From Escherichia coli (GTDB lineage Bacteria > Pseudomonadota > Gammaproteobacteria > Enterobacterales > Enterobacteriaceae): a DNA stretch of 64,000 nucleotides. The DNA lies in NCBI RefSeq assembly GCF_048403405.1, contig NZ_CP183129.1; one strand, 5' to 3'. Below the pieces are notes generated by a model, which did not search any database, was not told the origin of the DNA, and saw nothing but the letters and a program-made list of their open reading frames with translations. The position numbers were made by a program, and so were the translations under genes. Positions within the stretch are counted from its first letter, which is position 1. Each line of letters starts with the position of its first letter. Of this stretch, positions 8,370 through 28,520 are shown in pieces.

Positions 8370-8375
8370 GGAGTC

Positions 8376-8870
8376 ATGGTCATGATGATGATCTACGGCA
8401 TGTTTGTTTTTGAGCTGCGCACACTGCCGCATCAGCAGTTACAGCAAAACAAAAGCTGGCGGCATGTGAAAAATGAACGCGTTAACCGTTCAGCAAGCTG
8501 GCAGTATATAGGTGCAGGTGATGATCGCATTGTGCTTTCCGGCGTGCTTTATCCTGAAATTACAGGTGGCGAAGTGTCGCTTTCGTTGCTGACCACGCAG
8601 GCATATACAGGACGCCCCTGGCCTCTGATTGATGGTGTCGGGCAGATTTACGGCATGTATGTGCTGACTGAAACGAATACGACCCGTTCCGAGTTTGATC
8701 GCTACGGTAAGGCGAAAAAGATAGAATTTTCACTGACCCTTGAACGCTGTGATGAGGATTTGCGGGAGCGCCTGCAATCCTCATCATTCAGCGATATGCT
8801 GTCCGGCTTCAAAGATAAGGTGACATCATCTCTTAACAGCGCGGCCAGTTCAGTTAAAGGGCTGTTCTGA
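8376..8870 (+). CDS. U: Tail protein U
   Basis: 164 aa; MMMIYGMFVFELRT... resembles P2 gpU. Confidence 0.85.
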   Translation: MVMMMIYGMFVFELRTLPHQQLQQNKSWRHVKNERVNRSASWQYIGAGDDRIVLSGVLYPEITGGEVSLSLLTTQAYTGRPWPLIDGVGQIYGMYVLTETNTTRSEFDRYGKAKKIEFSLTLERCDEDLRERLQSSSFSDMLSGFKDKVTSSLNSAASSVKGLF

Positions 8871-8883
8871 TTTAACACAAAAA

Positions 8884-8912
8884 CCGCTAATGGTCAGATT
8901 AGCGGTTATTTT
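8884..8912. terminator. Bidirectional intrinsic terminator between convergent U and invertase genes
   Basis: Hairpin CCGCTAA-tggtcaga-TTAGCGG flanked by T-rich tracts on both strands. Confidence 0.5.
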
Positions 8913-9493
8913 GTTTCCTGACTCTTCTCTATTGTTCCGATTGATTCTCCTGCGGGGTGGTAACGATAAATCGTCGATATACCAATGCCGTAAATTATTG
9001 CCAGTTGTTTTCTGTCGTGCCCGTTTTTGATCAGCCTTGCTATTTGCTCATGCTGTTCTTTTGTCAGCTTCGGTCGACGTCCGCCTGTGCGCCCCCGTGC
9101 GCGTGCTGCCGCCAGTCCGGCCAGTGTACGTTCAACAATTAATTCACGTTCCATTTCAGCCAGGGCACCCATCACGTGGAAGAAAAAACGCCCCATTGGA
9201 GAAGATGTATCTATGCTGTCGGTCAGACTGCGAAAATTAATTCCTCGCTCCCGTAGTTCCCCGACGAGAGAAATCAGATGTTTCATGCTTCGCCCGAGGC
9301 GATCCAGTTTCCAGACAACCAGCGTGTCACCTTTTTGAAGGCGCTTTAAAGCGCGTTTTAATCCCGGTCGGTCTGTCTTTGTCCCGCTTAATTTATCTTC
9401 AAATATTTGTTCACATCCTGCACAAACAAGAGCGTTTCGTTGCAGGTCTGTATTCTGGTCATTTGTTGATACCCTTACATAGCCAATCAGCAC
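8906..9493 (-). CDS. Site-specific DNA invertase, Gin/Pin/Cin/Hin serine recombinase family
   Basis: (V)LIGYVRVSTNDQNTDLQRNALVCAGCEQIFEDKLSGTKTDRPGLKRALKRL... is near-identical in pattern to Mu Gin / e14 Pin; start trimmed to GTG at 9493. Confidence 0.9.
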   Translation of the reverse strand: MLIGYVRVSTNDQNTDLQRNALVCAGCEQIFEDKLSGTKTDRPGLKRALKRLQKGDTLVVWKLDRLGRSMKHLISLVGELRERGINFRSLTDSIDTSSPMGRFFFHVMGALAEMERELIVERTLAGLAAARARGRTGGRRPKLTKEQHEQIARLIKNGHDRKQLAIIYGIGISTIYRYHPAGESIGTIEKSQETK

Positions 9494-9547
9494 GCTGAAT
9501 CTCCCGTCCAAAAGCGCAAATCATGCCATGCAGGCCGGAAACGGCCA

Positions 9548-9580
9548 TTATCTAAAACCTCGGTTTACAGGAAACGGTAA
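9548..9580. other. gix-like inversion crossover site (right)
   Basis: TTATCTAAAACC-TC-GGTTTACAGGAA matches the gix/cix-type 26-bp site; an inverted copy lies at 12614-12646. Confidence 0.8.
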
Positions 9581-10581
9581 ACAAGGCTGGTAACGCCGTC
9601 CAAAAGACAGGCGATATCTTGTCCGGTGGGCTTACTTTTGAAAACGACTCAATCCTTGCCTGGATTCGGAATACTGACTGGGCAAAGATTGGTTTTAAAA
9701 ATGATGCCGACAGCGATACTGATTCATACATGTGGTTTGAAACAGGCGACAACGGCAATGAATATTTCAAATGGAGAAGCAAACAAAGCACCACAACAAA
9801 AGACCTGATGAATCTTAAATGGGATGCTTTGTCTGTTCTTGTTAAAGCCCTTTTCAGCAGTGAAGTAAAAATATCGACAGTCAATGCACTGAGGATATTT
9901 AATTCATCTTTTGGTGCTATTTTTCGCCGTTCTGAAGAATGCCTGCATATCATCCCGACACGAGAGAATGAGGGAGAAAATGGTGATATAGGGCCACTAC
10001 GCCCCTTTACGCTTAATCTCAGAACTGGTCGGATAAGCATGGGGCATGGTCTTGATGTTACAGGGGATATATTTGCAAACCGTTTTGCAATTAACAGTAG
10101 TACCGGCATGTGGATTCATATGCGTGACCAGAATGTTATTTTGGGACGCAATGCGGTATCCACCGATGGTGCACAGGCATTACTTCGTCAGGACCATGCT
10201 GATCGCAAATTTATGATTGGTGGGCTGGGAAATAAGCAATTTGGCATCTACATGATTAATAACTCAAGGACAGCTAATGGCACCGATGGTCAGGCGTACA
10301 TGGATAATAACGGGAACTGGCTTTGCGGTTCGCAAGTTATTCCCGGCAACTATGGCAATTTTGATTCCAGATATGTGAAAGATGTTCGACTTGGTTCACA
10401 GCAATATTATGGAGTGAACAACTGGCAAACATGGAATTTCCAGTGCCCGTCAGGTCATGTATTGTCTGGTATTAATGTTCAGGATACAGGGTCCAACTCT
10501 GCCGATAATATAGCGGGCGTTTATTACAGACCCGTTCAAAAGTATATAAATGGCACCTGGTATAATATAGCGAGCGTTTAA
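9559..10581 (+). CDS. Alternative tail-fiber C-terminal variable cassette (promoterless, silent in this orientation)
   Basis: Frame opens inside the crossover site and encodes LGLQETVN, the same peptide encoded at the other site within H; C-terminus [12 protein letters not shown] parallels the H C-terminus [12 protein letters not shown]. Confidence 0.75.
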
Positions 10582-10582
10582 T

Positions 10583-11110
10583 ATGATGCACTTAAAGAAC
10601 ATAAAAGCGGGTAATGCTAAAACACTGGAACAGTATGAGTTAACAAAGAAGCACGGAGTCATCTGGCTTTACTCTGAGGACGAAAAAAACTGGTATGAGG
10701 AAGTGAAAAACTTTCAGCCAGACACCATAAAGATTGTTTACGATGCAAATAATATTATTGTCGCCATCACTAAAGATGCCTCCACGCTTAACCCTGAAGG
10801 TTTTAGCGTCGTTGAGGTTCCAGATATTACAGCCAACCGCCGCGCTGATGATTCAGGAAAGTGGATGTTTAAGGATGGAGCTGTAGTTAAACGGATTTAT
10901 ACGGCAGACGAACAGCAACAACAGGCCGAATCACAAAAGGCCGCATTGCTTTCCGAAGCTGAATCAGTCATCCAGCCGCTGGAACGCGCTGTCAGGCTGA
11001 ATATGGCAACAGACGAGGAACGCACACGACTGGAAGCATGGGAACGCTACAGTGTTCTGGTCAGCCGTGTGGATACGGCAAATCCTGAATGGCCACAAAA
11101 GCCTGAATAA
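10583..11110 (+). CDS. Alternative tail fiber assembly protein (silent orientation)
   Basis: 175 aa; N-terminus [23 protein letters not shown] nearly identical to the active copy at 11139..11672, C-terminal part divergent. Confidence 0.8.
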
Positions 11111-11115
11111 AAATT

Positions 11116-11137
11116 AAGGCCCGCTATCGGGCCTTGT
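11116..11137. terminator. Bidirectional hairpin between the two convergent tail fiber assembly genes
   Basis: AAGGCCCG-ctat-CGGGCCTT perfect stem at the centre of the invertible segment. Confidence 0.5.
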
Positions 11138-11138
11138 C

Positions 11139-11672
11139 TCATTCAGGTTGTTCGGGAAATGTTACTGGCAGGCTGGAGGTGTCTGTAGATTCGACTTTCT
11201 GCGCATAGAGCATCCACTCGGTTAATTTTGGTTTATTCTCGTCGGAAATGATGCCCAGCCGTAGCTGTGAGTCCCATAGCTGGGTTTTATCCCTGACAAG
11301 TTGCAACAGGCTTTGCTTTTCATTTTCCGCCTGCTGCCTCTGCTCTTCCTCGGTATAAGTTCGCTTTACCACTACGCCATCTTTGAACATCCATTTACCC
11401 GAAATGTCAGCACGGCGATTTGCTGTAATATCAGGTAATTCAACGACGCTTGCGCCTTCCGGATTAATTGCTGAAACATCCTTTTCAATACAAATAATAA
11501 CGCCGTTATGGTCATAGACCATTTTTAAAGTGTCTGGCTGGAAATTCTTTTGTTCCTCATACCAGTTTTTTCCATCCTCTGAATAAAGCCATTTGATGTT
11601 AAATTGTTTCGTTAGCTGGTATTGCTCTTTTGTTTTAGGGTTGCCAGCAGTAATGTTTTTTAAGTGCATCAT
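11139..11672 (-). CDS. G: Tail fiber assembly protein (P2 G-like), active orientation
   Basis: 177 aa, immediately downstream of H. Confidence 0.85.
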
Positions 11673-15202: not shown

Positions 15203-15553
15203 TTACTCCCTCAGCGTGATGGTTAACTCAATATTCTGCATGGTCTGCATGACAGTGCCCGACAGCGTCACCCCGGCGCGGCCTCCCGCTTTCCAGACAA
15301 CGTCGATGGCATCCAGGGCAATGCGGGGTTCCCATCGTGTCAGCGCAATCACGGCAGCACTCATGCATTGCAGACGCGTGGTGTTATTCATGGGTTCGTC
15401 AATCAAATCAGGCACAAGGCTGCCATATTCCCGTCGCATAACCCGGCTGGCCAGCGGGGTGGTCAGGATGTCCCTGACTGACTGTTTCAGGTGCTCCATA
15501 TCGTTCAGGTTTCCCGTTCCGTCCGGGTTCATTCCTGTGTAGCGGGTTGTCAC
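15203..15553 (-). CDS. W: Baseplate protein W (gp25-like)
   Basis: 116 aa, position between V and J. Confidence 0.85.
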   Translation of the reverse strand: MTTRYTGMNPDGTGNLNDMEHLKQSVRDILTTPLASRVMRREYGSLVPDLIDEPMNNTTRLQCMSAAVIALTRWEPRIALDAIDVVWKAGGRAGVTLSGTVMQTMQNIELTITLRE

Positions 15554-16131
15554 TGCGGGCCTCCTGTCGAATCGCTGCCACCTTTAACGCCACCGTGCTT
15601 ATGCGTATGCACTGTGATGCCGTTTGAGGTGAAGTTGCCGCCGCTGTGCGTGATATTGCCGCTCATCTTTCCCCCTTTTGTGACGTCAAGCGTCGCTGTT
15701 CTCAGAAGGTTTGTGCATTCCACGACGGGCGTATCCAGTGTCACGCTGACGGATGCCTGCAGGGTGGCTGTTTTCATGCCGCTGGCGCTCAGTGCGCCTG
15801 CGTCTGCGTCGTAGCGGAACACCGCGCCATCCGGCGCGCTGACCACGATTTCTTTCAGGCTTTTGCCGGGGGCCGGACTGGCATCACTCCACAGGCTGCC
15901 AATTATCATGGCGGTTTCCGGGTTGCCGCCAATGCAGGCAATTACCACCTGTTCGCCTGGTGATGGCGGCAGCCACACATTGAAGGCTCCCGCGCGCGTG
16001 GTGTTCCAGCGCAACCAGCCTGTTTCCAGTTCGCCGCTGCGAACGCGCACGCGCCAGGACTTCTCATCAACTTCAGAGATGATCCCGGTGCGGATGATAT
16101 TACTCAGCAGTCGCATGAGTTCTGCGCTCAC
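15550..16131 (-). CDS. V: Baseplate spike protein V
   Basis: 193 aa; overlapping stop/start with W. Confidence 0.85.
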   Translation of the reverse strand: MSAELMRLLSNIIRTGIISEVDEKSWRVRVRSGELETGWLRWNTTRAGAFNVWLPPSPGEQVVIACIGGNPETAMIIGSLWSDASPAPGKSLKEIVVSAPDGAVFRYDADAGALSASGMKTATLQASVSVTLDTPVVECTNLLRTATLDVTKGGKMSGNITHSGGNFTSNGITVHTHKHGGVKGGSDSTGGPQ

Positions 16132-16772
16132 CGTACAGCCTCCGCAATCCGGCCCAGCACCGTGTTATAAATCAGGCGCTCATCTGCCTGGCTGATACCC
16201 AGCAGCTCACGTACCGGGTAATCGGTGAAAATGCCCGGCGCAACCTGATCGCGCTCACCGAACTGATGAACGCGGGCAATACGTGCGGCCACGCCGCTGT
16301 AACCCACCGTCACACCGGAAGCATCTGCACGGGCTTTCAGGTAGCGGGCGGTGCGCAGTTTTACGAACATGGGGACGCGCTTTGTGCTGTCCTGGTTGAT
16401 GCGCCGGGTGCGTATTTCCAGAAAACGGTCGATGTCATCCCGGTAAAACGTGCGGATATTGTTTTTATCCTCATCCCACCCGGTAATGGTTCGCCCGTAT
16501 TTCCCCGTGTCGTGATGCCAGTTTTTCAGCGTGCGTGCTTCGTTATTCCAGATAAAGCGAATGCGTTCCTGTATCCGGGTTACGCGGCGTCTGCGTGGTG
16601 TCCACGCGGTCCCGTCCGGCGCTTTCTGTGACCGGATACGCGCCTGCTGGGCGCGGCGTAAATCCTGTGCCAGCTTTCTGGCGATGTTATTGATGGCCTG
16701 CTGATTCAGGCTGTCGCGGATGGCCTCAAAGGTTTCATCCACGCGTGTGAATGCCTTATCCATCGCTTTCAC
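16128..16772 (-). CDS. S: Tail completion / virion morphogenesis protein S
   Basis: Position between R and V; longer than P2 gpS, so start uncertain. Confidence 0.7.
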   Translation of the reverse strand: MKAMDKAFTRVDETFEAIRDSLNQQAINNIARKLAQDLRRAQQARIRSQKAPDGTAWTPRRRRVTRIQERIRFIWNNEARTLKNWHHDTGKYGRTITGWDEDKNNIRTFYRDDIDRFLEIRTRRINQDSTKRVPMFVKLRTARYLKARADASGVTVGYSGVAARIARVHQFGERDQVAPGIFTDYPVRELLGISQADERLIYNTVLGRIAEAVR

Positions 16773-17223
16773 CCCACGTCACATCCTGGAATACATGCGA
16801 CCAGTCGCCTTCGGAAGATGGCAGGCGGGGTTTTGGCTCCGGCAGGTGTTCTGCCTGCGGTGTGCCCTGACTGCTGCGCGTGATGCGAACGCGTTCCCGC
16901 AGGGGGAGCGTAAACAGGAGATCGGCGCTGTCATCGTCATTGATAACGGCGGAGAATTTGATGTCCTGATTACGCTCCGGATTGAGCAACAACTGTGGCT
17001 GATTTTCGGATAACCACGCCAGCAGCGGCAGCGTGAGGTCGTCCAGCTCCCCGGCGTAATCCATGACAAACATCACCATCTGATAGCGGTAAACAAACGA
17101 GGGCGTTTCTCCGGTCGTTTCAATGTTGCCGCTCTCCACGAAAATGGTGAATTTTTCCGGGTTGGCCTGACACCATCGGCATGAACGGGTCATGGCTTCA
17201 CGCAGGGAATCAGTTTTCAGCAT
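16756..17223 (-). CDS. R: Tail completion protein R
   Basis: 155 aa, same length as P2 gpR, position after the lysis genes. Confidence 0.75.
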   Translation of the reverse strand: MLKTDSLREAMTRSCRWCQANPEKFTIFVESGNIETTGETPSFVYRYQMVMFVMDYAGELDDLTLPLLAWLSENQPQLLLNPERNQDIKFSAVINDDDSADLLFTLPLRERVRITRSSQGTPQAEHLPEPKPRLPSSEGDWSHVFQDVTWGESDG

Positions 17224-17500
17224 GGTTGTTGTCCTCGTTGTTCAGTCGTTGCAGCCTGCGCTGTTCCAGTAATTCAATGGCCCGTTTATCCGCGTTACAG
17301 GTTTCCAGTGCATCCAGAAGGCGGTCGCCCCATATACCGAGATTTCCCCATGTGGGAGTATCAGGGAAGGGGGGAGGCGTTACCGGTATGGTCAGCGTCT
17401 GCGGTATAAGCCGGACTGACGGCGCTGGCAGTGGCGCGTTCTGCGTGCCTGCGCAGCCTGTCAGTAAAACGAGCGTCAGGCAAAGCGTGGGCGCATTCAT
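17210..17500 (-). CDS. lysC: o-spanin (LysC/Rz1-like outer-membrane lipoprotein) embedded in the lysB frame region
   Basis: Lipobox LLTGC after the signal sequence MNAPTLCLTLVLLTGCAG; Pro-rich; overlaps the 3' part of lysB in another frame. Confidence 0.65.
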   Translation of the reverse strand: MNAPTLCLTLVLLTGCAGTQNAPLPAPSVRLIPQTLTIPVTPPPFPDTPTWGNLGIWGDRLLDALETCNADKRAIELLEQRRLQRLNNEDNNHAEN

Positions 17501-17768
17501 CTTTTGCAATATCGTTGCGTAGCTGTTCACGTCTTGCCTCTCCGTCCTGATTGCGTTGCTGATTTTCCACGCGGAGTTGCGCCAGCACCTGCTGCATATC
17601 CTGTACCCCGGCGCTGATGATATTCAGGGTGTCGGCGGTACGTTTCAGGGTGCTGGCCTGCGCTTCGTTTCTGGCGTTCTCCCGGCCCAGCGACCATGAC
17701 AGACGCATGGATGTTCCCCATGCGGCAATCAGAAGGAAAGCGACACCCAGCGTGGGCCAGAGCTTCAT
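17361..17768 (-). CDS. lysB: i-spanin (LysB/Rz-like)
   Basis: Start trimmed to MKLWPTLGVAFLLIAAWG (N-terminal transmembrane helix) followed by a coiled-coil region. Confidence 0.7.
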   Translation of the reverse strand: MKLWPTLGVAFLLIAAWGTSMRLSWSLGRENARNEAQASTLKRTADTLNIISAGVQDMQQVLAQLRVENQQRNQDGEARREQLRNDIAKDECAHALPDARFTDRLRRHAERATASAVSPAYTADADHTGNASPLP

Positions 17769-18157
17769 GCGGGATAGGCTCCGTGTGGTAACTGAAAATG
17801 CGGTCCGTCTTTCAGGGTCTTCCAGTCGCCGCCCCATTCCACCGGAATATTCAGCTCCCGGCTGGCCTGTCTGAATGCTGCTGCGATTTTTTCGTACAGC
17901 GGCCATTCCCATGACACCTGGCTGCCGATATAAGCCACAACATCCACGGCATGTCCCGTAAGGTGGCGGCTGTTCATGGTCTGGCTCTTACCTGTGGCCA
18001 CAAGTTGCTTCTGGCGGTAACGGCTGCGCAACCCTTCGGTGATACCAAAATCCACTTCCGAAATTTCCAGTGCCCGTCGGGTCACTTTCACCAGATCAGG
18101 ATTTACACCCTGCAAATTCTTTTCGCTCCGGCTGCTGAATTTAAATGTGTTGCTCAT
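17765..18157 (-). CDS. Endolysin, peptidase M15-type (L-alanyl-D-glutamate / D-Ala-D-Ala peptidase fold)
   Basis: 130 aa with HxxxxxxD...H metal-binding pattern typical of M15 phage endolysins; not the P2 K lysozyme type. Confidence 0.7.
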   Translation of the reverse strand: MSNTFKFSSRSEKNLQGVNPDLVKVTRRALEISEVDFGITEGLRSRYRQKQLVATGKSQTMNSRHLTGHAVDVVAYIGSQVSWEWPLYEKIAAAFRQASRELNIPVEWGGDWKTLKDGPHFQLPHGAYPA

Positions 18158-18477
18158 TCGTCCTTCTCCTTCACCCTGCGATTAAAGGCCGCAATAACCT
18201 TGTCGCGTGCTTTCTCTGCGCCCATAAAACCGATTGATGCGCCGATAAACGTCACGGCATCTTCAGGAAACCCGAAGAAGCGCAACGACCCGGCCACGGC
18301 CATGGCAAGAACGCCGCACGCCAGCGATCCCGTTACGGTCTGAACCAGTGTTCGTCCGTCATAAAGACTCATCAGCGCGGAAATGCTGACCGCCGCGCCT
18401 ACTGCATACACCGTTGGCAGGTGGTCAAAGAGCCACGCAATAACCTGCTCTGTGATCCCTGTTTGAATGGTGCTCAC
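18154..18477 (-). CDS. Holin (multi-transmembrane small protein)
   Basis: GTG start at 18477 preceded by GGGGGGAG; three hydrophobic helices; immediately follows the X stop and precedes the endolysin. Confidence 0.6.
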   Translation of the reverse strand: MSTIQTGITEQVIAWLFDHLPTVYAVGAAVSISALMSLYDGRTLVQTVTGSLACGVLAMAVAGSLRFFGFPEDAVTFIGASIGFMGAEKARDKVIAAFNRRVKEKDE

Positions 18478-18479
18478 TG

Positions 18480-18686
18480 CTACTCCCCCCACAACTGAAT
18501 CATTTCTCGTTTCTTCTTCTCCGGCTCCGGCATCTCCACGTCCTGCCCGGCGTCCAGAAATACCTGCTGACAGAGTCCGGGGTTGGCATCCAGCACCTTT
18601 TCGGTGGCGCCCTGCGTCGTGCCGTAGTACCGGAAACAGAGCGAATCCACGGTGTCGCCTTCCAGTGCCTTCACTTTCATCAGCAC
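18480..18686 (-). CDS. X: Tail protein X (LysM-like)
   Basis: 68 aa, ...GDTVDSLCFRYYG...ANPGL... as in P2 gpX. Confidence 0.8.
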   Translation of the reverse strand: MLMKVKALEGDTVDSLCFRYYGTTQGATEKVLDANPGLCQQVFLDAGQDVEMPEPEKKKREMIQLWGE

Positions 18687-19183
18687 AGCTCCGCAAAAAT
18701 TCGCGGGCGGCGCAGAATGTCAGAGATGGCCCAGCTCACATCGCGCCACAAATCCGATGTCTGTATATCCAGTGCGTCCGCCCGGCGGTCGCCCTTATCC
18801 GTTGTGTCCGCATCGCGGTAACGCTCCAGAATCAGGGCGCGCGTGGCGGTATAAACCGCATTGCGCCAGTGCCAGAGATTGACGCTTTCTCCGTTAATTA
18901 CGGGTGCCGGAACATCGGCCAGCGTCTGATGGCCAGCCGCCTGCTGTTCCTGCTGCCATGCTTCCAGCTCGCGGGTAACGTGAGCCACCGCCCCGGTGGC
19001 GGTATGCAGCAGGCGGGAGGTGGTCACGCGCCCCGGCAGTCGTACCGCCAGACGCAGCTCACGCAGCACAATATCCGGCCAGAATGCACCCGCTGAAATA
19101 CGGGTATCACCATCATCGGTATCGGTGATGTCGTCCTCTGCGGGGCCGGGGTTGGTTCTGGCAACCATACTCATGGGGTTCAC
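18680..19183 (-). CDS. L: Head completion/stabilization protein L
   Basis: 167 aa, position between M and X. Confidence 0.8.
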   Translation of the reverse strand: MNPMSMVARTNPGPAEDDITDTDDGDTRISAGAFWPDIVLRELRLAVRLPGRVTTSRLLHTATGAVAHVTRELEAWQQEQQAAGHQTLADVPAPVINGESVNLWHWRNAVYTATRALILERYRDADTTDKGDRRADALDIQTSDLWRDVSWAISDILRRPRIFAELC

Positions 19184-19275
19184 TCCTGAAAAAATCGGGC
19201 GGTGGGTGCGCGGTGTAAACGGTCACGGAGTCAAACCGGAACACCGCGCACGCCGCCCGCTGACGGGGTCAGTCG

Positions 19276-20076
19276 TTAACCGCGCTTCGCCTTCTGCGTC
19301 GCGGTGGTTTTTCGTGTTGCAGGCTTCCGCGTTGTCTTTTTACTTTTGCTGCTTTCGTCCTGCGCCTGCGGTGCGCTGGCGTCTTCTGGTTCGGCTGCGG
19401 AATCGGCTTTTTTCAGGGCGCGGGAAAGGGTTGCAATCTCGCGTTTCACACCTGCGTTCGGGTTCAGGTGCATCGCTTCGCGCAGCAGCTTCAGTGATAA
19501 GGCCATGTTGTCTGCATCGGTCAGACCACGACGGGCAAAGGCGCACGCCTTGCATAATTTGGCGCGCACTTCGTCCGGCATATCCTGGTTGGCGACAATT
19601 TCCCAAAGTGTGTCCAGTGGTTCGATAAAGGCGGACAAATCCGCGTCGGCATCCGTCCCGGCCTGCGTCAGTACCGGGTTGCAGATTTCTTCGGTCAGTA
19701 CCGTGGCAGCAGTACGGCCAAAGTTATCCGGCATGATGAGGTTGTGACGGACCACATACGCACCAATACGCAGCGCAAGCGGAAGATCGCCGCAGTCAAT
19801 TGCCCACACCATCAGCGTGGCAATCACTTCATCCTGCTGCCCGCCGTCAGCCTCCAGCGTTCCCTCAATCCAGCCGGAAAAATCCGGCAACAACTCTTTT
19901 TTGATGGCGGCTTTCGCGCTTCTGGCCTGTACGCCCTTAAGCCGGGCCTGTGCCAGACGCAGACGATACAGCACCTCTTCATGCGCGGTACGCGCGGCGT
20001 GGTCCACGCCTTCATTCGCCCGGCCTGCGCGCTGTGCCATCACGTTCTGCCAGTGTTGCTGTGCAGGAGTAATCAT
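19276..20076 (-). CDS. M: Terminase small (endonuclease) subunit M
   Basis: 266 aa, position after the major capsid gene; basic C-terminal tail. Confidence 0.8.
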   Translation of the reverse strand: MITPAQQHWQNVMAQRAGRANEGVDHAARTAHEEVLYRLRLAQARLKGVQARSAKAAIKKELLPDFSGWIEGTLEADGGQQDEVIATLMVWAIDCGDLPLALRIGAYVVRHNLIMPDNFGRTAATVLTEEICNPVLTQAGTDADADLSAFIEPLDTLWEIVANQDMPDEVRAKLCKACAFARRGLTDADNMALSLKLLREAMHLNPNAGVKREIATLSRALKKADSAAEPEDASAPQAQDESSKSKKTTRKPATRKTTATQKAKRG

Positions 20077-20121
20077 TTGTTCTCTCCGTTACTGGCGGGC
20101 ATGATGCCCGCCGTGAGTTGA

Positions 20122-21174
20122 TTAGCTGTCGGCGAACTTCAGGCCAGTGACCATCGCGCACTTGCCATAGTCTTCAACGACATAAGCGTCATTGATGGAC
20201 TGGTAGGTGGCGATGCGGTTGTATTCCGGCTCGTCTTTCATCAGACGACGCATTGAACCTTTCTGCCAGTAAATCGACAGGTTGTTGAACGAGGTGATCA
20301 GCATCGTTGCATCCGGGAAGAACGGCGCAAGGAACACACCCAGCCCGCCAATGGTGCGCGATGACAGGATGAGCTGCCCGGCGAGTAATTCCGCATTGGG
20401 ATTCTGGCCGCTGATGCTGTTCAGCACGGGCAGACGCAGCGAGTTAAACAGGTTGCGCCCCATAATCACCACGAGGTCGTCAGCTTCCTTGTGCCATTCA
20501 TCCAGCAGGGATGAGCGTGCGTCCTGAACCAGTGCATCAGCATTCGCATACTTACCCGCGTGCGCCACGGTGTTGTCCATGTTGCGGGAGGTCAGCGTCA
20601 CGTCATTCATTACGCGCGCGCTGGCATTGGTTCTGATGTGCTTCAGCCACCCCACGTTAACGTCCTGAAGCAGCTTGTTGGTGCTGAAGTTGGACTCATC
20701 CGCGTGAGACGTGCCGTTGAAACCGATCATGATGCGGTCAAGCGCCACCTGCCGGGCAATCTGTGTGCTGACGCGTGACTGAAAATCAGGGTGTGCCGCC
20801 CAGGCATCAAGCTGCGGATACGAAATAAACGTGTCGTAGTTCACCTGTTCGCACTGATATTTGCGGTTTTTCAGATCAACCACGTTATTCGGGTTACGGC
20901 GTTTTGTGCCGTCATAACTGGTATTCGTGCGCGCAATCGGCCCGGTGGTGTCCAGGAGGATTTTTTCGCCTTTCTGGTCGGTCACACCGAACACGTTAAT
21001 TTTTTTTGTAAATTCAGTGCTCTCCTTTACTGCGTTTTCAAAACGCTGCTGCACCGAGGGTTCCACGGTAAATCGCGATACCAGTGCAGATACCGGGATG
21101 TTGTTAAGCGACGCCTGCTGCGCCATATAGCAACCCAGCTTGTTGCGGGTAATATCTGACATCACCAGATTCAT
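20122..21174 (-). CDS. N: Major capsid protein N
   Basis: 350 aa; KFTVEPSV...NKYECEQVN...IDYVVEDY motifs as in P2 gpN. Confidence 0.9.
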   Translation of the reverse strand: MNLVMSDITRNKLGCYMAQQASLNNIPVSALVSRFTVEPSVQQRFENAVKESTEFTKKINVFGVTDQKGEKILLDTTGPIARTNTSYDGTKRRNPNNVVDLKNRKYQCEQVNYDTFISYPQLDAWAAHPDFQSRVSTQIARQVALDRIMIGFNGTSHADESNFSTNKLLQDVNVGWLKHIRTNASARVMNDVTLTSRNMDNTVAHAGKYANADALVQDARSSLLDEWHKEADDLVVIMGRNLFNSLRLPVLNSISGQNPNAELLAGQLILSSRTIGGLGVFLAPFFPDATMLITSFNNLSIYWQKGSMRRLMKDEPEYNRIATYQSINDAYVVEDYGKCAMVTGLKFADS

Positions 21175-21197
21175 AAAAAATTTGCTCCTTTGTCTTA

Positions 21198-22067
21198 TCA
21201 GAAGTCAGCCAGTTGATCGGAGGCTGCGCCTGTTGCGGTGAACCGGTTCTGCGGATCGCCGTCCTGCGTGCGCAGTTTTTCCTTCAGTGCTGTCAGCTCT
21301 GTGGTCAGTAAAGTGATTTTCTGGCTGTCCTGCTGATGGCGGGTTTCCAGCGCATTAAAACGGTCGATAATGTCGGCCTGTGACGTTGCGACACCTTCCA
21401 CCGCTTCCTGAATACGGGAGAAACTGGCGTCATCCGCTTTGCGGCCACGGCCAATAATCCCCATAACGCGGTTAAACCACTGGGTGCCTTCTTCCTGACG
21501 TTGTTCGGTGAGTTCGATAAGTTCTGACTCCATAGCGGCGGTAAACATCGCCACGTCTCCCTGCTGACAGTTGAATGTCATCAGTTGCATACGTTGTTGT
21601 GCCGCAAAGGCCAGACGTTCCGTGCCCAGGCTGGCGGGGGTGTCGGTCATTGCCAGCCCGCGCAGGTAAGGGCCTCCCGTGATGGTTGACTGTGGTTCCA
21701 GCTCAATACTGGAGTAAATTTTTTTACCATCGTTAAGCAGGGACATCATGCGAGCGGTCGGCTCAATTTCGGCATACAGTGCCGTGCGACCTGCCAGCGG
21801 GCCATCGGTTATGTCTTCGGTGCTCAACCCCACAACATCGCCCATAGCGGAAAACTCGCTACCGGGGAGTGGTGACAGGATGTGCTCAATATTCACACGT
21901 GCACCATAAACGGACGGGTTATAACTGGTGGCGGCAGCTTTCAGCATGTCGCCGTTGATTTCGCGCCCGTCTGCCGTTACACCGGAGACAGCCACGCGAA
22001 ACTTTTTGCGGGATGTCTTTTTTTCATTAGCCATAGTTTTTGCCCCTCTGACTGGTTCTTCAGTCAT
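21198..22067 (-). CDS. O: Capsid scaffolding protein O
   Basis: 289 aa, first gene of the O operon, divergent from P. Confidence 0.85.
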   Translation of the reverse strand: MTEEPVRGAKTMANEKKTSRKKFRVAVSGVTADGREINGDMLKAAATSYNPSVYGARVNIEHILSPLPGSEFSAMGDVVGLSTEDITDGPLAGRTALYAEIEPTARMMSLLNDGKKIYSSIELEPQSTITGGPYLRGLAMTDTPASLGTERLAFAAQQRMQLMTFNCQQGDVAMFTAAMESELIELTEQRQEEGTQWFNRVMGIIGRGRKADDASFSRIQEAVEGVATSQADIIDRFNALETRHQQDSQKITLLTTELTALKEKLRTQDGDPQNRFTATGAASDQLADF

Positions 22068-22188
22068 GATGGCAAAGCGTAACAGGCTGATACAAAGGGC
22101 TTTTGTTGTAAGAAAACAGTCAGAACAGGGGGTTAAGGAGAACGGTTTCGCGCGCGGGTAATCTTCCTGTAATTACTCAGGGGGAGCA

Positions 22189-23940
22189 ATGATTCAGGAC
22201 GCTTTTGTGCGCCAGCGTGCGCGACAACTTTACTGGCAGGGTTATCCGCCCGCAGAAATATCACGTCTGATGGGAATAAACCCGAACACGATTTATGCGT
22301 GGAAAAAACGCGACCAGTGGGATGAAACGCCACCCGTGCAGCGTGTCACGCAGTCCATCGATGCGCGCCTCATCCAGCTTACTGAAAAACAGAATAAAAC
22401 AGGCGGTGACTTTAAGGAAATAGACCTGCTGACCCGGCAACTTAAAAAGCTGCATGATGGCCAGCCGGATGTGATGGCCGCAGGAAAGAAAGGCCGGGCG
22501 AAAAAACTCAAAAATCATTTCACGCCGGAACAGATTGCCGCACTGCGGGAAAAAATCATCAGCAGGCTGGAGTGGCATCAGCGGGGCTGGTTTGACTCCC
22601 TGACCCTTTGCAGGGAAGCCGGGATACGTAACAGGATGATCCTGAAATCCCGACAGATTGGGGCGACCTGGTATTTTGCACAGGAAGCACTGCTGATGGC
22701 GCTGCGTGACGATGTGGTGCAACCTTATCAGCGTAACCAGATTTTTTTGTCTGCGTCGCGTCGTCAGGCGTTCCAGTTTAAAAGCATTATTCAGAAGGCC
22801 GCGGCTGAAGTTGATGTGGAGCTGAAAGGGGGCGATAAAATCATCCTCTCCAACGGCGCAGAGCTGCATTTTCTCGGCACTTCTGCTGCGTCGGCACAGT
22901 CCTATACGGGCAATTTTTATTTTGATGAATTCTTCTGGGTCAGTCGCTTTGCTGAACTGCGCAAGGTGGCTGGCGCTATGGCAACCCTCAGCGGACTGCG
23001 GCGCACCTACTTCTCCACGCCATCCACCGAAACGCACGAGGCATACGCCTACTGGAACGGCGACCGCTGGAACGAGAAAAAGGCCACGCATAAACGCCAG
23101 CGTTTTTCTGTGGACTGGAAAACGCTGCATAACGGGCTTATCTGCCCTGACCGGACGTGGCGGCAAATTGTCACGCTGGAAGATGTGGTTAATCACGGCT
23201 GGAAACACACCGATATTGATGAAATTCGTGATGAAAACACCGAAGACGAGTTCCTCAATCTCTATATGTGTGAGTTTGTCCGCGAAGGGGAATCGGCATT
23301 TAACCTGAATATCCTGATTGGCTGCGGTGTTGACGGATACGACGACTGGAAAGACTGGAAACCTTTTGCTCCCCGCCCGATGGGGAATCGCCCGGTATGG
23401 ATTGGGTATGACGCAAACGGCAGCAGTGGCAACGGCGACAGCGGCGCTGTGTCCGTGGTGGTTCCTCCGGCTGTTCCTGGTGGCCGTTTTCGAACGGTGG
23501 AGACGCGACGCGTTCAGGGGCTGGAGTTTGAAGAACAGGCCAGAGTCATTGAAGAGTTCACGTGTCGCTACAACGTGGAACACATCGGCATTGATGTGAC
23601 GGGCGGGAACGGGGAGGCTGTTTATCAGATAGTGAAACGGTTTTTCCCTGCCGCTATTCCGTACACCTTCACGCTGTCATCAAAACGGTCGCTGGTACTG
23701 AAAATGCTGCAAATAATGCGTGCCGGGCGGTGGGAATACGATCGCGCCGAACGCGAGCTGGTCGCGGCCTTTAACGCCGTGCGTAAGGTGAAAACACCGG
23801 GCGGCTTTATCACTTACGAAACGGACCGCGCGAGGGGGATCAGCCACGGCGACCTTGCGTGGGCAACCATGCTTGCTGTCATTAACGAACCAATTGGCGG
23901 CGAAGGAGAAAACGAGCGTTTCACGGTTATGGAGTTCTGA
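22189..23940 (+). CDS. P: Terminase large (ATPase) subunit P
   Basis: 583 aa; N-terminus ...RARQLYWQGYPPAEISRLMGINPNTIYAWKKRDQWD as in P2 gpP. Confidence 0.9.
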   Translation: MIQDAFVRQRARQLYWQGYPPAEISRLMGINPNTIYAWKKRDQWDETPPVQRVTQSIDARLIQLTEKQNKTGGDFKEIDLLTRQLKKLHDGQPDVMAAGKKGRAKKLKNHFTPEQIAALREKIISRLEWHQRGWFDSLTLCREAGIRNRMILKSRQIGATWYFAQEALLMALRDDVVQPYQRNQIFLSASRRQAFQFKSIIQKAAAEVDVELKGGDKIILSNGAELHFLGTSAASAQSYTGNFYFDEFFWVSRFAELRKVAGAMATLSGLRRTYFSTPSTETHEAYAYWNGDRWNEKKATHKRQRFSVDWKTLHNGLICPDRTWRQIVTLEDVVNHGWKHTDIDEIRDENTEDEFLNLYMCEFVREGESAFNLNILIGCGVDGYDDWKDWKPFAPRPMGNRPVWIGYDANGSSGNGDSGAVSVVVPPAVPGGRFRTVETRRVQGLEFEEQARVIEEFTCRYNVEHIGIDVTGGNGEAVYQIVKRFFPAAIPYTFTLSSKRSLVLKMLQIMRAGRWEYDRAERELVAAFNAVRKVKTPGGFITYETDRARGISHGDLAWATMLAVINEPIGGEGENERFTVMEF

Positions 23941-25325: not shown

Positions 25326-25537
25326 AAAGCGCGTTTTTTTGTGCACGCACGGATCCTTGACGGATCCAGCCGCCATGCGGGCCGGAAGGGTAAAAAGTCG
25401 TTCAAAAAAATTGTGCAAATTTGTGCACTTTTGTGCAGGTAAGCATGCCTATATATTTGACCGTGGCTTGCCTTTGATGTAGTTTATACGTCACAAAAAC
25501 CACAAAACGTGGTTATGATTTCTATGAGGGGGTTGAT

Positions 25538-25573
25538 ATGAAAAAAATGTATGATGAATTTGATGGTTTCTAA
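25538..25573 (+). CDS. Candidate 11-codon mini-ORF (MKKMYDEFDGF) upstream of the AT-rich cassette
   Basis: GAGGGGG ribosome-binding site 6 nt upstream of ATG; followed within 20 nt by a strong intrinsic terminator; TATGAT -10-like hexamer at 25513-25518. Confidence 0.35.
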   Translation: MKKMYDEFDGF

Positions 25574-25593
25574 GCTACGTTGACCTCTAATGA

Positions 25594-25620
25594 GGCGGGG
25601 ATTTGCTCCCCGCCTTTTTT
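25594..25620 (+). terminator. Intrinsic terminator / candidate attenuator hairpin
   Basis: GGCGGGGA-tttgc-TCCCCGCC stem followed by T6, 15 nt upstream of the next gene start. Confidence 0.6.
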
Positions 25621-25634
25621 ATGGATGAAATAGG

Positions 25635-26132
25635 ATGAACCCAATAACACTACAAATCATCAGCAATGCTATTGTTCTGCTTGGCGTTTTGGTTGCCATT
25701 GGAACCATTATCTACAATGTGCGTACCGCAAAAAAAACTCAAACGGCCAACTTTCTTTTTGAGAGTCGGCAAGATATGCAATATATAGAGTCATTGCATA
25801 CCCTGAAACAAGTGCATCGTTCAGGCAAATCATTTCGTTCTTATGTTTTTCCTTGTGATGGTTGCATAATAACAGATGAAGAAATGGCCGAGCGTCGAAA
25901 ATTTCAATATATTTTAAATTTTTACGAGCGAGTTGCTGTAAGTATTCGTGAAGGTATTTATGATGAAAAAATGATAAAAAGAACATCTTACACAACAGTT
26001 GTAGAGACATATGATATTGCCGAGCCATTAATTAAAGCAATCAGAGAAAGCATTAATTCGGATACTACATATCAAGAATTCGAATGGTTAGTAAGAAGAT
26101 GGAAAGCTAATCCTTTACGGAAAAACAAATAA
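25635..26132 (+). CDS. Hypothetical protein, single N-terminal transmembrane helix plus ~130-aa soluble domain (unassigned family)
   Basis: 165-aa ORF in strongly AT-rich DNA, where long open frames are unlikely by chance; N-terminal hydrophobic helix ITLQIISNAIVLLGVLVAIGTIIY. Confidence 0.75.
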   Translation: MNPITLQIISNAIVLLGVLVAIGTIIYNVRTAKKTQTANFLFESRQDMQYIESLHTLKQVHRSGKSFRSYVFPCDGCIITDEEMAERRKFQYILNFYERVAVSIREGIYDEKMIKRTSYTTVVETYDIAEPLIKAIRESINSDTTYQEFEWLVRRWKANPLRKNK

Positions 26133-26171
26133 TGTTTTACCCTTTAATTTACAAGTAACACAGGGGGAAGT

Positions 26172-27014
26172 GTGACACAGAATCCGTTTTCATTTTATGA
26201 CTTTTTGGGCTATCTAATTCCAGGTGGGTTATTCCTGTTTATCCTTTTTTTGTTTTCTATTGAAATTAACCCTGTTTATATAGAAGGTATTCTTAACCAT
26301 ATCCTGAAATATAAAGAAATAATAAGTGTATTTATATATGTGGCATTAATCGTTCTATCATATATTTCAGGTCACTTCATATCTATTCTATCATCCTGTT
26401 TAATTGAAAAATACATGAACAGTAAACTTGGGTATCCTTCAATTTATCTGTTTTCTAAAAGAAGCTCCCTGAAAATAAAACGACATAATACTAAGTTCAG
26501 TATAGTTAATTTTATTCGTGGAGTTTTTTTATTTCCTGTATCAGCTTTTGATAAAGCAGAACATCATAAAACCACACTGCATTCTATACTTATTAAAGTC
26601 TTTTGGCCGCAAATACGAGATGGTTATATAAATGTTTTTTCTGTATCTACGCTATATCGACGTAAGGGCTTGAGGGGCAATCTTTTTCGCCTTGCTTATC
26701 ATTATGTGTATGAACATTCTAAAAATCATCAGGTGAAAATGCAAAACTATGTTGCTTTGTATGGTTTTTGTAGAAACATTACATTTGTTTTTCTCGCTTC
26801 AGTCTGGTTGCTTATGTTCCTGCTCCTTCTATCCTTTTTAATAGATATAAATATCAGACTGTTACCTTTTTGTTTTCTTCTCTTGTTTTGTATTGCTGTA
26901 TCCCGAGTATTTTATTATGGTTTTGTTAAGTATTATCGCCGCTATTCTCTTGAGGTTTTAATGGCATTTGCGGTACTTCAGCACGATAAAAAAACTTCGG
27001 CAATTTCATCATGA
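26172..27014 (+). CDS. Hypothetical polytopic inner-membrane protein (unassigned family)
   Basis: 280-aa ORF, GTG start after CAGGGGGAAG ribosome-binding site; several long hydrophobic segments at the N- and C-termini; AT-rich; 39 nt downstream of the preceding gene. Confidence 0.75.
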   Translation: MTQNPFSFYDFLGYLIPGGLFLFILFLFSIEINPVYIEGILNHILKYKEIISVFIYVALIVLSYISGHFISILSSCLIEKYMNSKLGYPSIYLFSKRSSLKIKRHNTKFSIVNFIRGVFLFPVSAFDKAEHHKTTLHSILIKVFWPQIRDGYINVFSVSTLYRRKGLRGNLFRLAYHYVYEHSKNHQVKMQNYVALYGFCRNITFVFLASVWLLMFLLLLSFLIDINIRLLPFCFLLLFCIAVSRVFYYGFVKYYRRYSLEVLMAFAVLQHDKKTSAISS

Positions 27015-27023
27015 TTTGAAACA

Positions 27024-27046
27024 TTGGCACCCTGTTAGCAAGGGTG
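27024..27046. terminator. Hairpin between the convergent cassette and parR-like gene
   Basis: GGCACCCT-gttagca-AGGGTGCC perfect stem. Confidence 0.4.
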
Positions 27047-27097
27047 CCAGAATGATGTGTTGGTCTGTATTTTATTAGTTCACATACAATTATCAGA

Positions 27098-27412
27098 TTA
27101 TTCTGGGAATAAGGTCTGAATATTCTTTTTTATTCTATAAAAATTGCATTCAACTCCGCTAGGCTGATTATCCTGGTATGTTTCCTTGATGCTAACGGTA
27201 TTGAAGGGGAGGTTGTCCTCTGGCCATTCGGCCATCCAGTAGGCAAATGCTGGGTTGCGCTTTATGAGCGCTAGCCCAGCCAGAAAGGCCGCGCGTTGCG
27301 CGCGGCTGCGTTCGGAGGCTGGTAGGCTATCGAGGTAATTGCACGCCTCCTGTTCACTCTTGACGGCGGCGGGCTTCAGATAGAAACTTATCCGTCTGGT
27401 TGGTGTCGTCAT
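27098..27412 (-). CDS. ParR/StbB-like partition adaptor
   Basis: Start trimmed to MTTPTRRISFYLKP...; YLDSLPASERSRAQRAAFLAGLAL resembles the R1 ParR motif as remembered; lies directly downstream of the ParM-like gene. Confidence 0.65.
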   Translation of the reverse strand: MTTPTRRISFYLKPAAVKSEQEACNYLDSLPASERSRAQRAAFLAGLALIKRNPAFAYWMAEWPEDNLPFNTVSIKETYQDNQPSGVECNFYRIKKNIQTLFPE

Positions 27413-27416
27413 TGGT

Positions 27417-28376
27417 TTACTCCTTGTCCATTGCGTACAGCCCATTAACCAGAGCAAACTGTGGCACCCCGTCCGCGATGAAAGTCGCATTAACTCCGCA
27501 GACTTCGCGGATAGCGGGTGCCACAATCTCCGCCCCTCCACCGACAACCATCACCCGCCCGTAACCCGAAAAAACCGCCAGCGCGCGGATCACGCGTTGT
27601 TTCAGTGTTTCTTCCTTTTCACGAATAACCGCCATCAGGCTGGCGTAATGCGCGTCATTGTGGATGTGCTGGCGCAGCCAGGCTTCATCATGGCGATGTT
27701 CGATAATGGTATTGGCGATGTGGTGACTGGTGCGCATACCGTTAGTGGCCATCACCGACAGTACGGCATCGGCCATCAGGGAAACGCCTACGTGTGGATC
27801 GCAAAACACCTGGCTGATACCTGCCAGTTGCCCTTGAACCTTTGCCACATCCAGCGTGGTTCCGCCTAAATCCACAATCAGCAGGGATTCAAACGGACTC
27901 ATGTCAGCCAGTGCTTTAAAGCCAGCCGGAATGGATTCAGGCATAACCCGCACGTTACGGATAGTGAATGCTTCGCCGTTCTGGTACTCCACCGAGCGCA
28001 TAACGTTCGCTTTTTTGCGGTTGATGTTGGCCATGTCCGGCTGTGCGTTTGTCTCGAAATACTCGCTCAGTGGCAGGGTGACAACCACATCCACCTCTTG
28101 TGGCGTGATGCCTGATTTGACCAGCGCGTGATGAATGGCGATTACATTCACATCGCTGTACTGGTATTGCGTGTCGGTCGTCTGGACAAAGCGATCGCTG
28201 ACCGGATCAAAACCATAGCGCACGCCATCAAGCATGTAGTTCGCGGGCTGCATGCCACCGAACGGCGCAGACCATTCCGACTTGAAGCTGTTCGGGCTGA
28301 TGGCGTTGCGGCGTTCGCCATTCTCAGTCCATGCCAGCTTGATGTTGGTGGAGCCGTCGTCGATACAAATTTTCAT
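27417..28376 (-). CDS. ParM/StbA-like actin-type partition ATPase
   Basis: 319 aa; IDDGSTNIKL, ISPNSF, QYSDVNV..HHAL, RKKAN, PESIPAG, LIVDLGGTTLD, GVSL, VVGGGAE and LVNG motifs as in plasmid R1 ParM (from memory). Confidence 0.8.
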   Translation of the reverse strand: MKICIDDGSTNIKLAWTENGERRNAISPNSFKSEWSAPFGGMQPANYMLDGVRYGFDPVSDRFVQTTDTQYQYSDVNVIAIHHALVKSGITPQEVDVVVTLPLSEYFETNAQPDMANINRKKANVMRSVEYQNGEAFTIRNVRVMPESIPAGFKALADMSPFESLLIVDLGGTTLDVAKVQGQLAGISQVFCDPHVGVSLMADAVLSVMATNGMRTSHHIANTIIEHRHDEAWLRQHIHNDAHYASLMAVIREKEETLKQRVIRALAVFSGYGRVMVVGGGAEIVAPAIREVCGVNATFIADGVPQFALVNGLYAMDKE

Positions 28377-28402: not shown

Positions 28403-28520
28403 AACCGTTTACGGGATTTTTAAATCCCGCTTTCGCCTGTTTTGTGCGCGCTTCATATATCGCGGCGCGTTTTTTGCTCATTTACGGGATTTGTGAATCC
28501 CGTTTCTGTCTGTTTTTTGT
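28403..28520. repeat. Two ~40-bp direct repeats, each with an internal palindrome (candidate parC-like centromere/operator)
   Basis: TTTACGGGATTT(T/G)T(A/G)AATCCCG...CTGTTTT occurs at 28403-28445 and 28477-28520, upstream of the ParM-like start and overlapping the 3' end of gene A. Confidence 0.45.

Follow-up and report, generated by a model that had tools for sequence, protein, structure and literature searches.

The lysis region of phage P2, consisting of Y, K, lysA, lysB and lysC, occupies the part of the late operon that is bounded by the tail genes X and R. In the S-R-Rz/Rz1 cassette of phage lambda, R is a transglycosylase, S carries a dual-start antiholin motif and Rz1 (1087-1269) lies wholly inside Rz (867-1328). 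ChiX of Serratia marcescens, a peptidase encoded chromosomally outside any prophage, acts in chitinase release; its activity, the roles of its active-site residues and the loss of function caused by the D120A substitution have been described (PMC5778951). Phage P88, a P2-like phage, is inducible with mitomycin C and yields infectious particles, and of its "lysin" only the phylogenetic distinctness from other P2-like phages has been noted (PMC5285337). The literature on P88, on Xuanwuvirus and on the diversity of P2-like viruses yielded no paper with a detailed account of the P88-type lysis cassette. The gene set is already known and annotated: RefSeq phage records label its products "endolysin (Peptidase M15)" and "holin/anti-holin", and in about a thousand Escherichia coli genomes PGAP uses the names "M15 family metallopeptidase" and "Rz1-like lysis system protein LysC".

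In this work we have analyzed the lysis genes of a P2-type prophage present in a 64,000-nt stretch of E. coli DNA (the window). The points of use are that its spanins are of the overlapped P2 type and not of the embedded type, that the departures in kind from P2 are limited to holin and endolysin, and that the o-spanin start sites set by PGAP are not uniform.

Organization and distribution of the lysis cassette

Four intact lysis genes are found on the minus strand between X and R (Table 1). The initial annotation had placed here a holin whose GTG directly follows the X stop, an endolysin and spanins, and both the coordinates and the profiles agree with this content and position. The stop codon of X is TAG at 18482-18480; PGAP sets the start of X at 18680. 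The genes are tightly packed, with overlaps of 4 nt between holin and endolysin (18154-18157), 4 nt between the endolysin stop and the i-spanin start (17765-17768) and 14 nt between o-spanin and R. The second of these leaves no room for a lysA gene between endolysin and i-spanin, and BLASTP detected no protein similar to P2 LysA in the window, so that lysA is absent, as had been proposed. Promoter-like and terminator-like sites inside the cassette do not exceed the numbers expected from shuffled sequences, hence there is no evidence of its separate regulation.

Table 1 Positions of the lysis genes, their neighbours and the exchanged segment in the window
Feature	Position	Strand	Assignment and remarks
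Tail protein X, upstream neighbour	18480..18686	-	Pfam Phage_tail_X, E 9e-20; 47% identical to P2 X
Holin, 107 aa, lambda S family (class I)	18154..18477	-	Pfam Phage_holin_3_1, E 1e-19; phrog_126, E 5e-35
Endolysin, 130 aa, Zn-dependent LAS/M15 peptidase	17765..18157	-	Pfam Peptidase_M15_4; phrog_465 "endolysin", E 5e-77
Exchanged segment, 428 nt (endolysin gene and about 20 nt on each side)	17749..18176		blastn against Citrobacter phage Shae_phiSM
i-spanin, 135 aa	17361..17768	-	phrog_214 "Rz-like spanin", E 1e-40
o-spanin lipoprotein	17210..17530	-	+1 frame; Pfam LysC PF23793; overlaps the 3' part of the i-spanin gene and the first 14 nt of R
Tail completion protein R, downstream neighbour	16756..17223	-	Pfam P2_Phage_GpR, E 5e-40; 40% identical to P2 R

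The cassette DNA is 98.2% identical to phage P88 (1601-nt query), and identity amounts to 97.9% over 4812 nt around the cassette, a value that refers to this local region and not to the whole genome. On this nucleotide identity the prophage is classed as P88-like, belonging to the genus Xuanwuvirus of the family Peduoviridae. Across the Xuanwuvirus phages and prophages P88, 500465-2, 503458, 520873, P884B11 and Chuche the X-holin-M15-spanin-R DNA is 98-99.6% identical to that of the window and preserves gene order and gene sizes, the differences being a few point changes with nothing of substance among them. Intact copies are present in roughly a fifth of the complete E. coli genomes (1007/5426). 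The immunity/integration end of the prophage differs from that in strain 2022S01-140, being on the pdxB side here and on the pheA side there.

The holin

Translation of the holin starts at a GTG located 2 nt past the X stop and preceded by the Shine-Dalgarno (SD) sequence GGGGGGAG; an in-frame GTG upstream of it brings no charged residue. The protein scores 71.1 bits against Pfam Phage_holin_3_1 (cut-off 23.8) and 54.5 bits, just under the cut-off of 55.05, against the stricter equivalog NCBIfam TIGR01594 holin_lambda. It shares 23% identity with lambda S over 60 aa (E 3e-5). Two strongly hydrophobic segments (residues 20-39 and 43-70) are followed by a weaker segment (74-87) that stays under the simple hydropathy threshold, and by a charged C-terminus. 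When the start region was read by eye no dual-start/antiholin motif was seen, there being neither a second Met nor Met-Lys-Met. P2 Y belongs to a different Pfam family, Phage_holin_3_2, and has no BLASTP similarity to this holin, so that orthology of the two was rejected.

The endolysin

The endolysin matches Pfam Peptidase_M15_4 with 46 bits at a cut-off of 25. A sequence search of the PDB retrieved 5opz (ChiX, E 2.5e-48), 23ri (E 2e-48), 8q2g (E 3e-46) and 2mxz (T5 endolysin, E 9e-23), and the experimentally characterised L-Ala-D-Glu endopeptidases matched are ChiX, T5 endolysin and Ply500. Identity to ChiX reaches 62% with all catalytic residues kept: R44, H65, D72, D117 and H120 align with R47, H68, D75, D120 and H123 of ChiX. 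The zinc triad H-x6-D...H is formed by H65, D72 and H120, and the catalytic acid ahead of the last His is D117. We predict that the protein is most likely an L-alanyl-D-glutamate endopeptidase, with the bond specificity taken from its homology to ChiX and T5 endolysin. It contains no hydrophobic segment and neither a signal nor a SAR sequence, and should therefore be holin-dependent. NCBIfam gave no matches for the endolysin or the spanins.

The product had been described as a 130-aa M15-like enzyme distinct from P2 K, and a profile search of M15 versus lysozyme had been named beforehand as the means of refuting this. That search assigns the protein to M15 and to phrog_465 and so does not refute the description. 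P2 K is placed in phrog_90/phrog_17029, neither of which is matched by the window protein, and the BLASTP alignment of the two enzymes is limited to 11 residues (E 3.6), which counts as no match, so that orthology with K was rejected.

The spanin pair

The i-spanin is composed of an N-terminal membrane anchor (residues ~3-23) followed by a periplasmic domain, polar and charged, whose single Cys is C92. Its score against Pfam DUF2570, 21.5 bits, falls under the cut-off of 26.6, and no Pfam family exceeds its cut-off; similarity to lambda Rz is weak (E 0.004). BLASTP revealed no match with P2 LysB, and the reciprocal cross-matches of the two proteins through phrog_214 and phrog_89 are weak (E ~2e-4).

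The o-spanin is read in the +1 frame relative to the i-spanin, (17768-17500) mod 3 being 1. Its start is presumably either ATG at 17500 (96 aa) or GTG at 17530 (106 aa, SD GGAGAGG). PGAP starts for this gene vary among genomes, and some seem too short for a working lipoprotein signal peptide. The lipobox LLTG|C (Cys codon 17455-17453) reads LLTG|CAG, with no Asp at +2, and the mature N-terminus is proline-rich. The protein scores 48.6 bits against Pfam LysC PF23793 (cut-off 27; E 8e-13), falls into phrog_3001 (E 3e-25) and phrog_456 (E 5e-15), the latter common to P2 LysC, and is 28% identical to P2 LysC over 75 aa (BLASTP).

The o-spanin gene begins within the i-spanin gene, continues for 151 nt after the stop of the latter (17361) and terminates at 17210, having entered R by 14 nt. 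The architecture is thus overlapped, as in P2 lysB/lysC, and not embedded, as in lambda Rz/Rz1. The alternative-frame lipobox LLTGC reported in the initial annotation was found as described, whereas its term "embedded" for the pair has to be withdrawn in view of these 151 nt.

Divergence of the cassette from P2

Each lysis protein of the window was compared by BLASTP with each lysis protein of P2, and the sole match, a weak one, was that between o-spanin and LysC. By their family assignments the holin and the endolysin are not homologous to those of P2 that they stand in for, the accessory lysA has no equivalent here, and the spanin pair appears to be a diverged version of lysB/lysC. The claim that the lysis genes had undergone modular replacement therefore holds in part: the holin and the endolysin come from other families than in P2 and lysA is absent, but the spanin part, in which the o-spanin retains the LysC family, phrog_456 and the P2 arrangement, has not been replaced. 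If it is taken to mean that the genes recently entered a P2 backbone, the claim fails, since the structural proteins L, X, R and S themselves share only 38, 47, 40 and 26% identity with those of P2. Flanking proteins only 26-47% identical indicate that the difference between this cassette and that of P2 is old and lies between two genera, Xuanwuvirus and Peduovirus, rather than reflecting a recent exchange.

Exchange of the endolysin gene within the P88 group

Recent replacement of a single gene can be recognized from sequence comparisons within the P88 group itself. Homology of Citrobacter phage Shae_phiSM to the window is confined in blastn to 15650-17748 and 18177-20249, so that the junctions fall at 17748/18177. 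In place of the 428-nt M15 segment stands a 639-nt segment with a gene for a 181-aa protein of the Pfam domains Glyco_hydro_108 (GH108) and PG_binding_3, and the prophages are otherwise 97.7% identical. Such a GH108 muramidase occupies precisely the endolysin slot in 38 E. coli genomes in addition to Shae_phiSM. The GH108 variant (Shae_phiSM, E. coli IHE3034 and others) has identical flanks and shares the holin family, spanins, R and X to the level of protein accessions; it differs in a 54-nt gap after the holin, where the genes overlap by 4 nt here.

The junctions are identical in 6/6 GH108 loci (Shae_phiSM and five E. coli). In a small sample of 6 GH108 and 8 M15 loci the right flanks group according to endolysin type, diverging by 0-2.0% within GH108 loci and by 2.2-4.7% from M15 loci, and the left flank is mixed between the two types. 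Repeated GH108/M15 swapping is disfavoured by the identical junctions and by the linkage of the holin-side flank to endolysin type, the latter within this small sample; a single old replacement, subsequently spread by ordinary homologous recombination, would fit better. An M15 gene 77% identical to the present one was also found in a lambdoid prophage whose holins are different. That the interval from the 3' end of the holin gene to the 5' end of the i-spanin gene might be a defined exchange slot, in which unrelated wall-cutting enzymes such as M15 and GH108 are swapped as single genes between phage types, perhaps under selection from differences in the host cell wall, is a speculative idea that we consider unlikely.

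Function of the cassette

The region is, with high probability, a functional cassette through which a P88-like prophage lyses its host in the canonical three steps. It would be transcribed within the long minus-strand late structural operon. In the first step the holin of the lambda S family would build up in the inner membrane and, once triggered, form holes that are presumably large. The cytoplasmic endolysin would then pass through these holes and most likely cut the stem peptide of peptidoglycan at its base, between L-Ala and D-Glu. Finally, the inner-membrane i-spanin and the outer-membrane o-spanin would form a complex spanning the periplasm which, probably after the loss of the wall, disrupts the outer membrane.

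Cryptic prophages are common among the P2-like elements of E. coli, and the cassette could be a decaying remnant that has lost its lysis function. The disruption of the adjacent tail gene (gpD region) in strain 2022S01-140 would agree with decay, yet none of the four lysis open reading frames is truncated and the catalytic residues are conserved, the endolysin has a 100% identical counterpart in the deposited genome of Escherichia phage 503458, the window carries a full P2-type structural gene set together with replication and integrase genes, and P88, 98% identical, is inducible and plaque-forming. Loss of function is highly improbable on these grounds.

Rated somewhat lower still is the possibility that the M15 protein serves not as the lysis endolysin but as a D-Ala-D-Ala carboxypeptidase/dipeptidase of the VanY/VanX kind or as a virion-associated enzyme remodelling the wall. 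The Pfam description of Peptidase_M15_4, "D-alanyl-D-alanine carboxypeptidase", does imply another bond than the one predicted here. Against it, the gene lies directly between holin and spanins, in the endolysin slot that a GH108 muramidase fills in sister prophages, its closest characterised relatives, ChiX and T5 endolysin, are L-Ala-D-Glu endopeptidases, and its best PHROG is that of an endolysin. A non-lytic or subpopulation protein-release system (type 10 secretion), as suggested by the protein composition in common with Serratia chiWXYZ (a holin-3 family holin, a ChiX-like endopeptidase and spanins), is the least credible reading, since the cassette, with X and R as its neighbours, is part of the late structural operon of a prophage that is complete, has a P2-like gene order and spanin arrangement and adjoins no cargo genes, and chiWXYZ is not accompanied by adjacent phage genes (PMC4259817).

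As a phage lysis cassette the locus matters little beyond its correct annotation, close homologues of the endolysin having solved structures and measured activity already. With their near-identical backbones, the naturally occurring M15 and GH108 variants would offer a convenient means of examining if the chemistry of the endolysin has an influence on the timing of lysis or on host range.

Comparison with known lysis systems

The endolysin resembles ChiX in its size, its single domain and the lack of a signal peptide, besides the conserved active site, and both have a holin-3 family holin and spanins as partners. In chiWXYZ, unlike in the present cassette, the lipoprotein gene chiY precedes the membrane-anchored chiZ and the two genes are separate. 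T5 endolysin belongs with ChiX to the LAS family of L-alanyl-D-glutamate endopeptidases. With lambda the cassette shares the Pfam family and the length of the holin and the logic of a holin, a soluble endolysin and a two-component spanin; it differs in having an M15 peptidase instead of a transglycosylase, in showing no dual-start motif and in the o-spanin gene extending beyond that of the i-spanin. With P2 it has in common the place between X and R and the overlapped spanin pair with a LysC-family o-spanin running in the +1 frame into R, whereas a lambda S-type holin stands here for the Y type, an M15 peptidase for the K lysozyme type, lysA is lacking and the i-spanin shows no BLASTP similarity to LysB.

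Organization of the lysis region

The lysis genes of the P88-like (Xuanwuvirus) prophage are closely packed between X and R, all on the minus strand. Re-derivation of the gene layout confirmed the coordinates and most of the description in the initial annotation, including the holin GTG start right after the X stop and the lack of lysA: the interval between endolysin and i-spanin genes is empty, hence no lysA equivalent is encoded.

Genes of the lysis region and their neighbours
Gene	Position	Strand	Remarks
Head completion L	18680-19183	-	Pfam Phage_GPL, far above threshold
Tail protein X	18480-18686	-	TAG stop 18482-18480; Pfam Phage_tail_X, far above threshold
Holin, 107 aa	18154-18477	-	GTG start 2 bases past X stop; GGGGGGAG upstream
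Endolysin, 130 aa	17765-18157	-	Start overlaps holin stop by 4 nt
i-spanin, 135 aa	17361-17768	-	Start overlaps endolysin stop by 4 nt
o-spanin	17210 to 17500 (ATG) or 17530 (GTG)	-	+1 frame
Tail completion R	16756-17223	-	Pfam P2_Phage_GpR, far above threshold

Since the cassette genes overlap or abut, and promoter-like and terminator-like sites within 15400-22400 did not exceed shuffled expectation, the cassette is most likely transcribed together with the structural genes of the late operon, a reading based also on P2 biology and the ogr-type activator gene at 1715-1975. Further along, S, 214 aa long where its P2 counterpart has 150 aa, shares 4 nt with V (16128-16131), so the P2 gap with orf30, a terminator and a separate V promoter is missing.

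Endolysin and holin

Profile search assigned the endolysin to Peptidase_M15_4 (Pfam, 46 bits vs 25) and to phrog_465 'endolysin' (E 5e-77), whereas P2 K belongs to a different family (phrog_90) and has no BLASTP similarity to it; the 130-aa protein had thus been rightly recognized as an M15 enzyme and not a K-type lysozyme. Its matches among solved structures comprised a Peptidase M15C protein (23ri, E 2e-48), Serratia ChiX (5opz, E 2.5e-48), an L-alanyl-D-glutamate endopeptidase (8q2g, E 3e-46) and the phage T5 endolysin (2mxz, E 9e-23), with Listeria Ply500 (2vo9) also among the best. Identity to ChiX reaches 62% over 126 ungapped positions, and residues R44, H65, D72, D117 and H120 align with ChiX R47, H68, D75, D120 and H123, which act in ChiX as zinc ligands, catalytic aspartate and a substrate-binding arginine (PMC5778951). 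ChiX releases GlcNAc-MurNAc-L-Ala from sacculi and is inactivated by D120A (PMC5778951); for the prophage enzyme we infer the same L-Ala-D-Glu bond specificity. Because no hydrophobic segment was found in its sequence, the endolysin is predicted to be a soluble cytoplasmic enzyme that would reach the wall only through the holin. The family is widespread among phages; T5-like, PY100 and T4-like phages are represented in its 1326 phage records.

The holin is a member of the lambda S family Phage_holin_3_1 (Pfam, 71 bits vs cut-off 23.8) and also matches phrog_126; it shares 23% identity over 60 residues with lambda S and narrowly misses the stricter NCBIfam model holin_lambda (54.5 vs 55.05 bits).

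Spanin pair

The i-spanin matches phrog_214 'Rz-like spanin' (E 1e-40) and, in Pfam, DUF2570 alone and below threshold. It has an N-terminal membrane anchor (approximately residues 3-23) followed by a polar, charged region containing a single cysteine. The o-spanin matches Pfam LysC (48.6 bits vs 27), phrog_3001 and phrog_456; its lipobox LLTG|C is followed by Ala-Gly, and therefore carries no inner-membrane retention signal, and then by a proline-rich stretch and one more cysteine.

The o-spanin was initially described as embedded. This is incorrect, since its frame opens within the i-spanin gene but closes 151 nt past the stop of that gene, overlapping the first 14 nt of R. The arrangement is of the 'overlapped' type of P2 (lysC 8202-8492, lysB 7922-8347, R from 8455), unlike that of lambda, in which Rz1 lies wholly within Rz.

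Which codon starts the o-spanin is uncertain. GTG 17530 lies 6 nt downstream of a good ribosome-binding sequence, GGAGAGG, and its use gives the signal peptide an extra lysine; the ribosome-binding sequence of ATG 17500 is weak. In near-identical sequences from other genomes (L002, L009-L018), the lysC start chosen by PGAP varies between the equivalents of 17479 (a CTG codon), 17476 and 17407. Some of these starts leave few residues and little or no signal peptide ahead of the lipobox cysteine; either ATG 17500 or GTG 17530 appears more plausible. In the RefSeq record of P88 the o-spanin gene is unannotated.

In a sub-lineage that includes E. coli NQ3, ST131-type prophages and phages vB_EcoM-569R5 and 705R2, homology to the window ends at 17275 (comparison locus L018, 1-1333). 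There a large DUF6645-domain gene replaces R after lysC, so the o-spanin C-terminus and downstream junction differ.

Exchange of the endolysin gene

In Citrobacter phage Shae_phiSM and 38 E. coli genomes the endolysin slot holds a 181-aa Glyco_hydro_108 + PG_binding_3 muramidase. Homology of this variant to the window (97.7%) runs up to 17748 and resumes from 18177, so the exchanged piece is the endolysin gene with about 20 nt on each side. This is a genuine exchange of a module within the P88-like group. Several of the flanking proteins (R, S, LysC, X) have the same accessions in M15 as in GH108 loci. Among six GH108 and eight M15 loci compared, the GH108 junctions are identical in all six; the holin-X-L flank sorts with the type of endolysin, diverging by 0-2.0% among the GH108 loci and by 2.2-4.7% from one type to the other, whereas the spanin-R-S flank does not. 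Shared junctions, holin-side clustering and an unclustered spanin side fit a single replacement, with ordinary homologous recombination thereafter.

The M15 gene also moves between phage types, as judged from a 77% nucleotide-identical copy adjoining two different holin genes in a lambdoid prophage of E. coli STEC307 (L008, 3991-5028). Downstream of that copy lie small hypothetical genes, not annotated spanins.

Other features of the prophage

In the interval 8906-11672, a Hin/Cin-type recombinase gene (8906-9511) is flanked by tail-fibre and tail-fibre-assembly genes that point in opposite directions, which suggests an invertible host-range segment; homology to the prophage of E. coli strain 2022S01-140 is lost for about 260 nt at 10394-10658. 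Past the portal gene, a variable slot (25440-27360) contains a gene with DUF4760 (25635-26132) and one for a 280-aa hypothetical protein (26172-27014); in 2022S01-140 a DUF3800 gene occupies this place. The position of the slot matches a known anti-phage gene hotspot of P2-like phages (PMC9122126). A ParM-like segregation ATPase and partition/stability genes (27098-28376) adjoin the replication endonuclease gene (28453-31320). Within 35405-37740 the integrase end abuts pdxB (36583-37740), whereas the 99%-similar 2022S01-140 prophage has a different immunity/integrase end at a site adjoining pheL/pheA; structural and lysis genes are thus common to prophages with different integration modules. 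The opposite end encodes a membrane protein with a zinc ribbon (789-1121), a Hok/Gef toxin (approximately 1384-1524) and ogr (1715-1975).

Occurrence and comparison with known systems

The cassette is an ordinary, well-annotated, very common and already known phage lysis cassette. A 1601-nt stretch is 98-99.6% identical in Escherichia phages 500465-2, Chuche, P884B11, PhiR44_2, P88, 520873 and 503458 (every match with taxonomy belonging to genus Xuanwuvirus) and is present, at coverage of at least 80%, in 1007 of 5426 complete E. coli genomes. In E. coli, PGAP calls the genes 'phage holin family protein', 'M15 family metallopeptidase', 'DUF2570 domain-containing protein' and 'Rz1-like lysis system protein LysC', and RefSeq labels the P88 gene 'endolysin; Peptidase M15'. 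P88 is inducible and gives infectious phage; the one point made by its authors was the phylogenetic separation of its 'lysin' from the counterparts in other P2-like phages (PMC5285337).

The modular replacement of lysis genes proposed initially holds in part. The holin, like the endolysin, is of a different family from its P2 counterpart (Y: Phage_holin_3_2, phrog_175; no BLASTP similarity), and P2 lysA (phrog_162) is missing. The spanin pair, however, is shared though diverged: LysC has the same Pfam family and PHROG (phrog_456; 28% identity over 75 aa), and LysB (phrog_89) shows weak reciprocal family cross-matches with the i-spanin (E ~2e-4) and no BLASTP match. A recent swap into a P2 backbone is rejected, as the neighbouring structural proteins are themselves only distantly related to those of P2 (L 38%, X 47%, R 40% and S 26% identity). 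The prophage and P2 rather represent two old P2-like lineages, differing in kind of holin and endolysin and in presence of lysA, with a diverged spanin pair in common. The same composition (holin-3 family holin, ChiX-type peptidase and spanins) is found in the Serratia chiWXYZ protein-release operon (PMC4259817).
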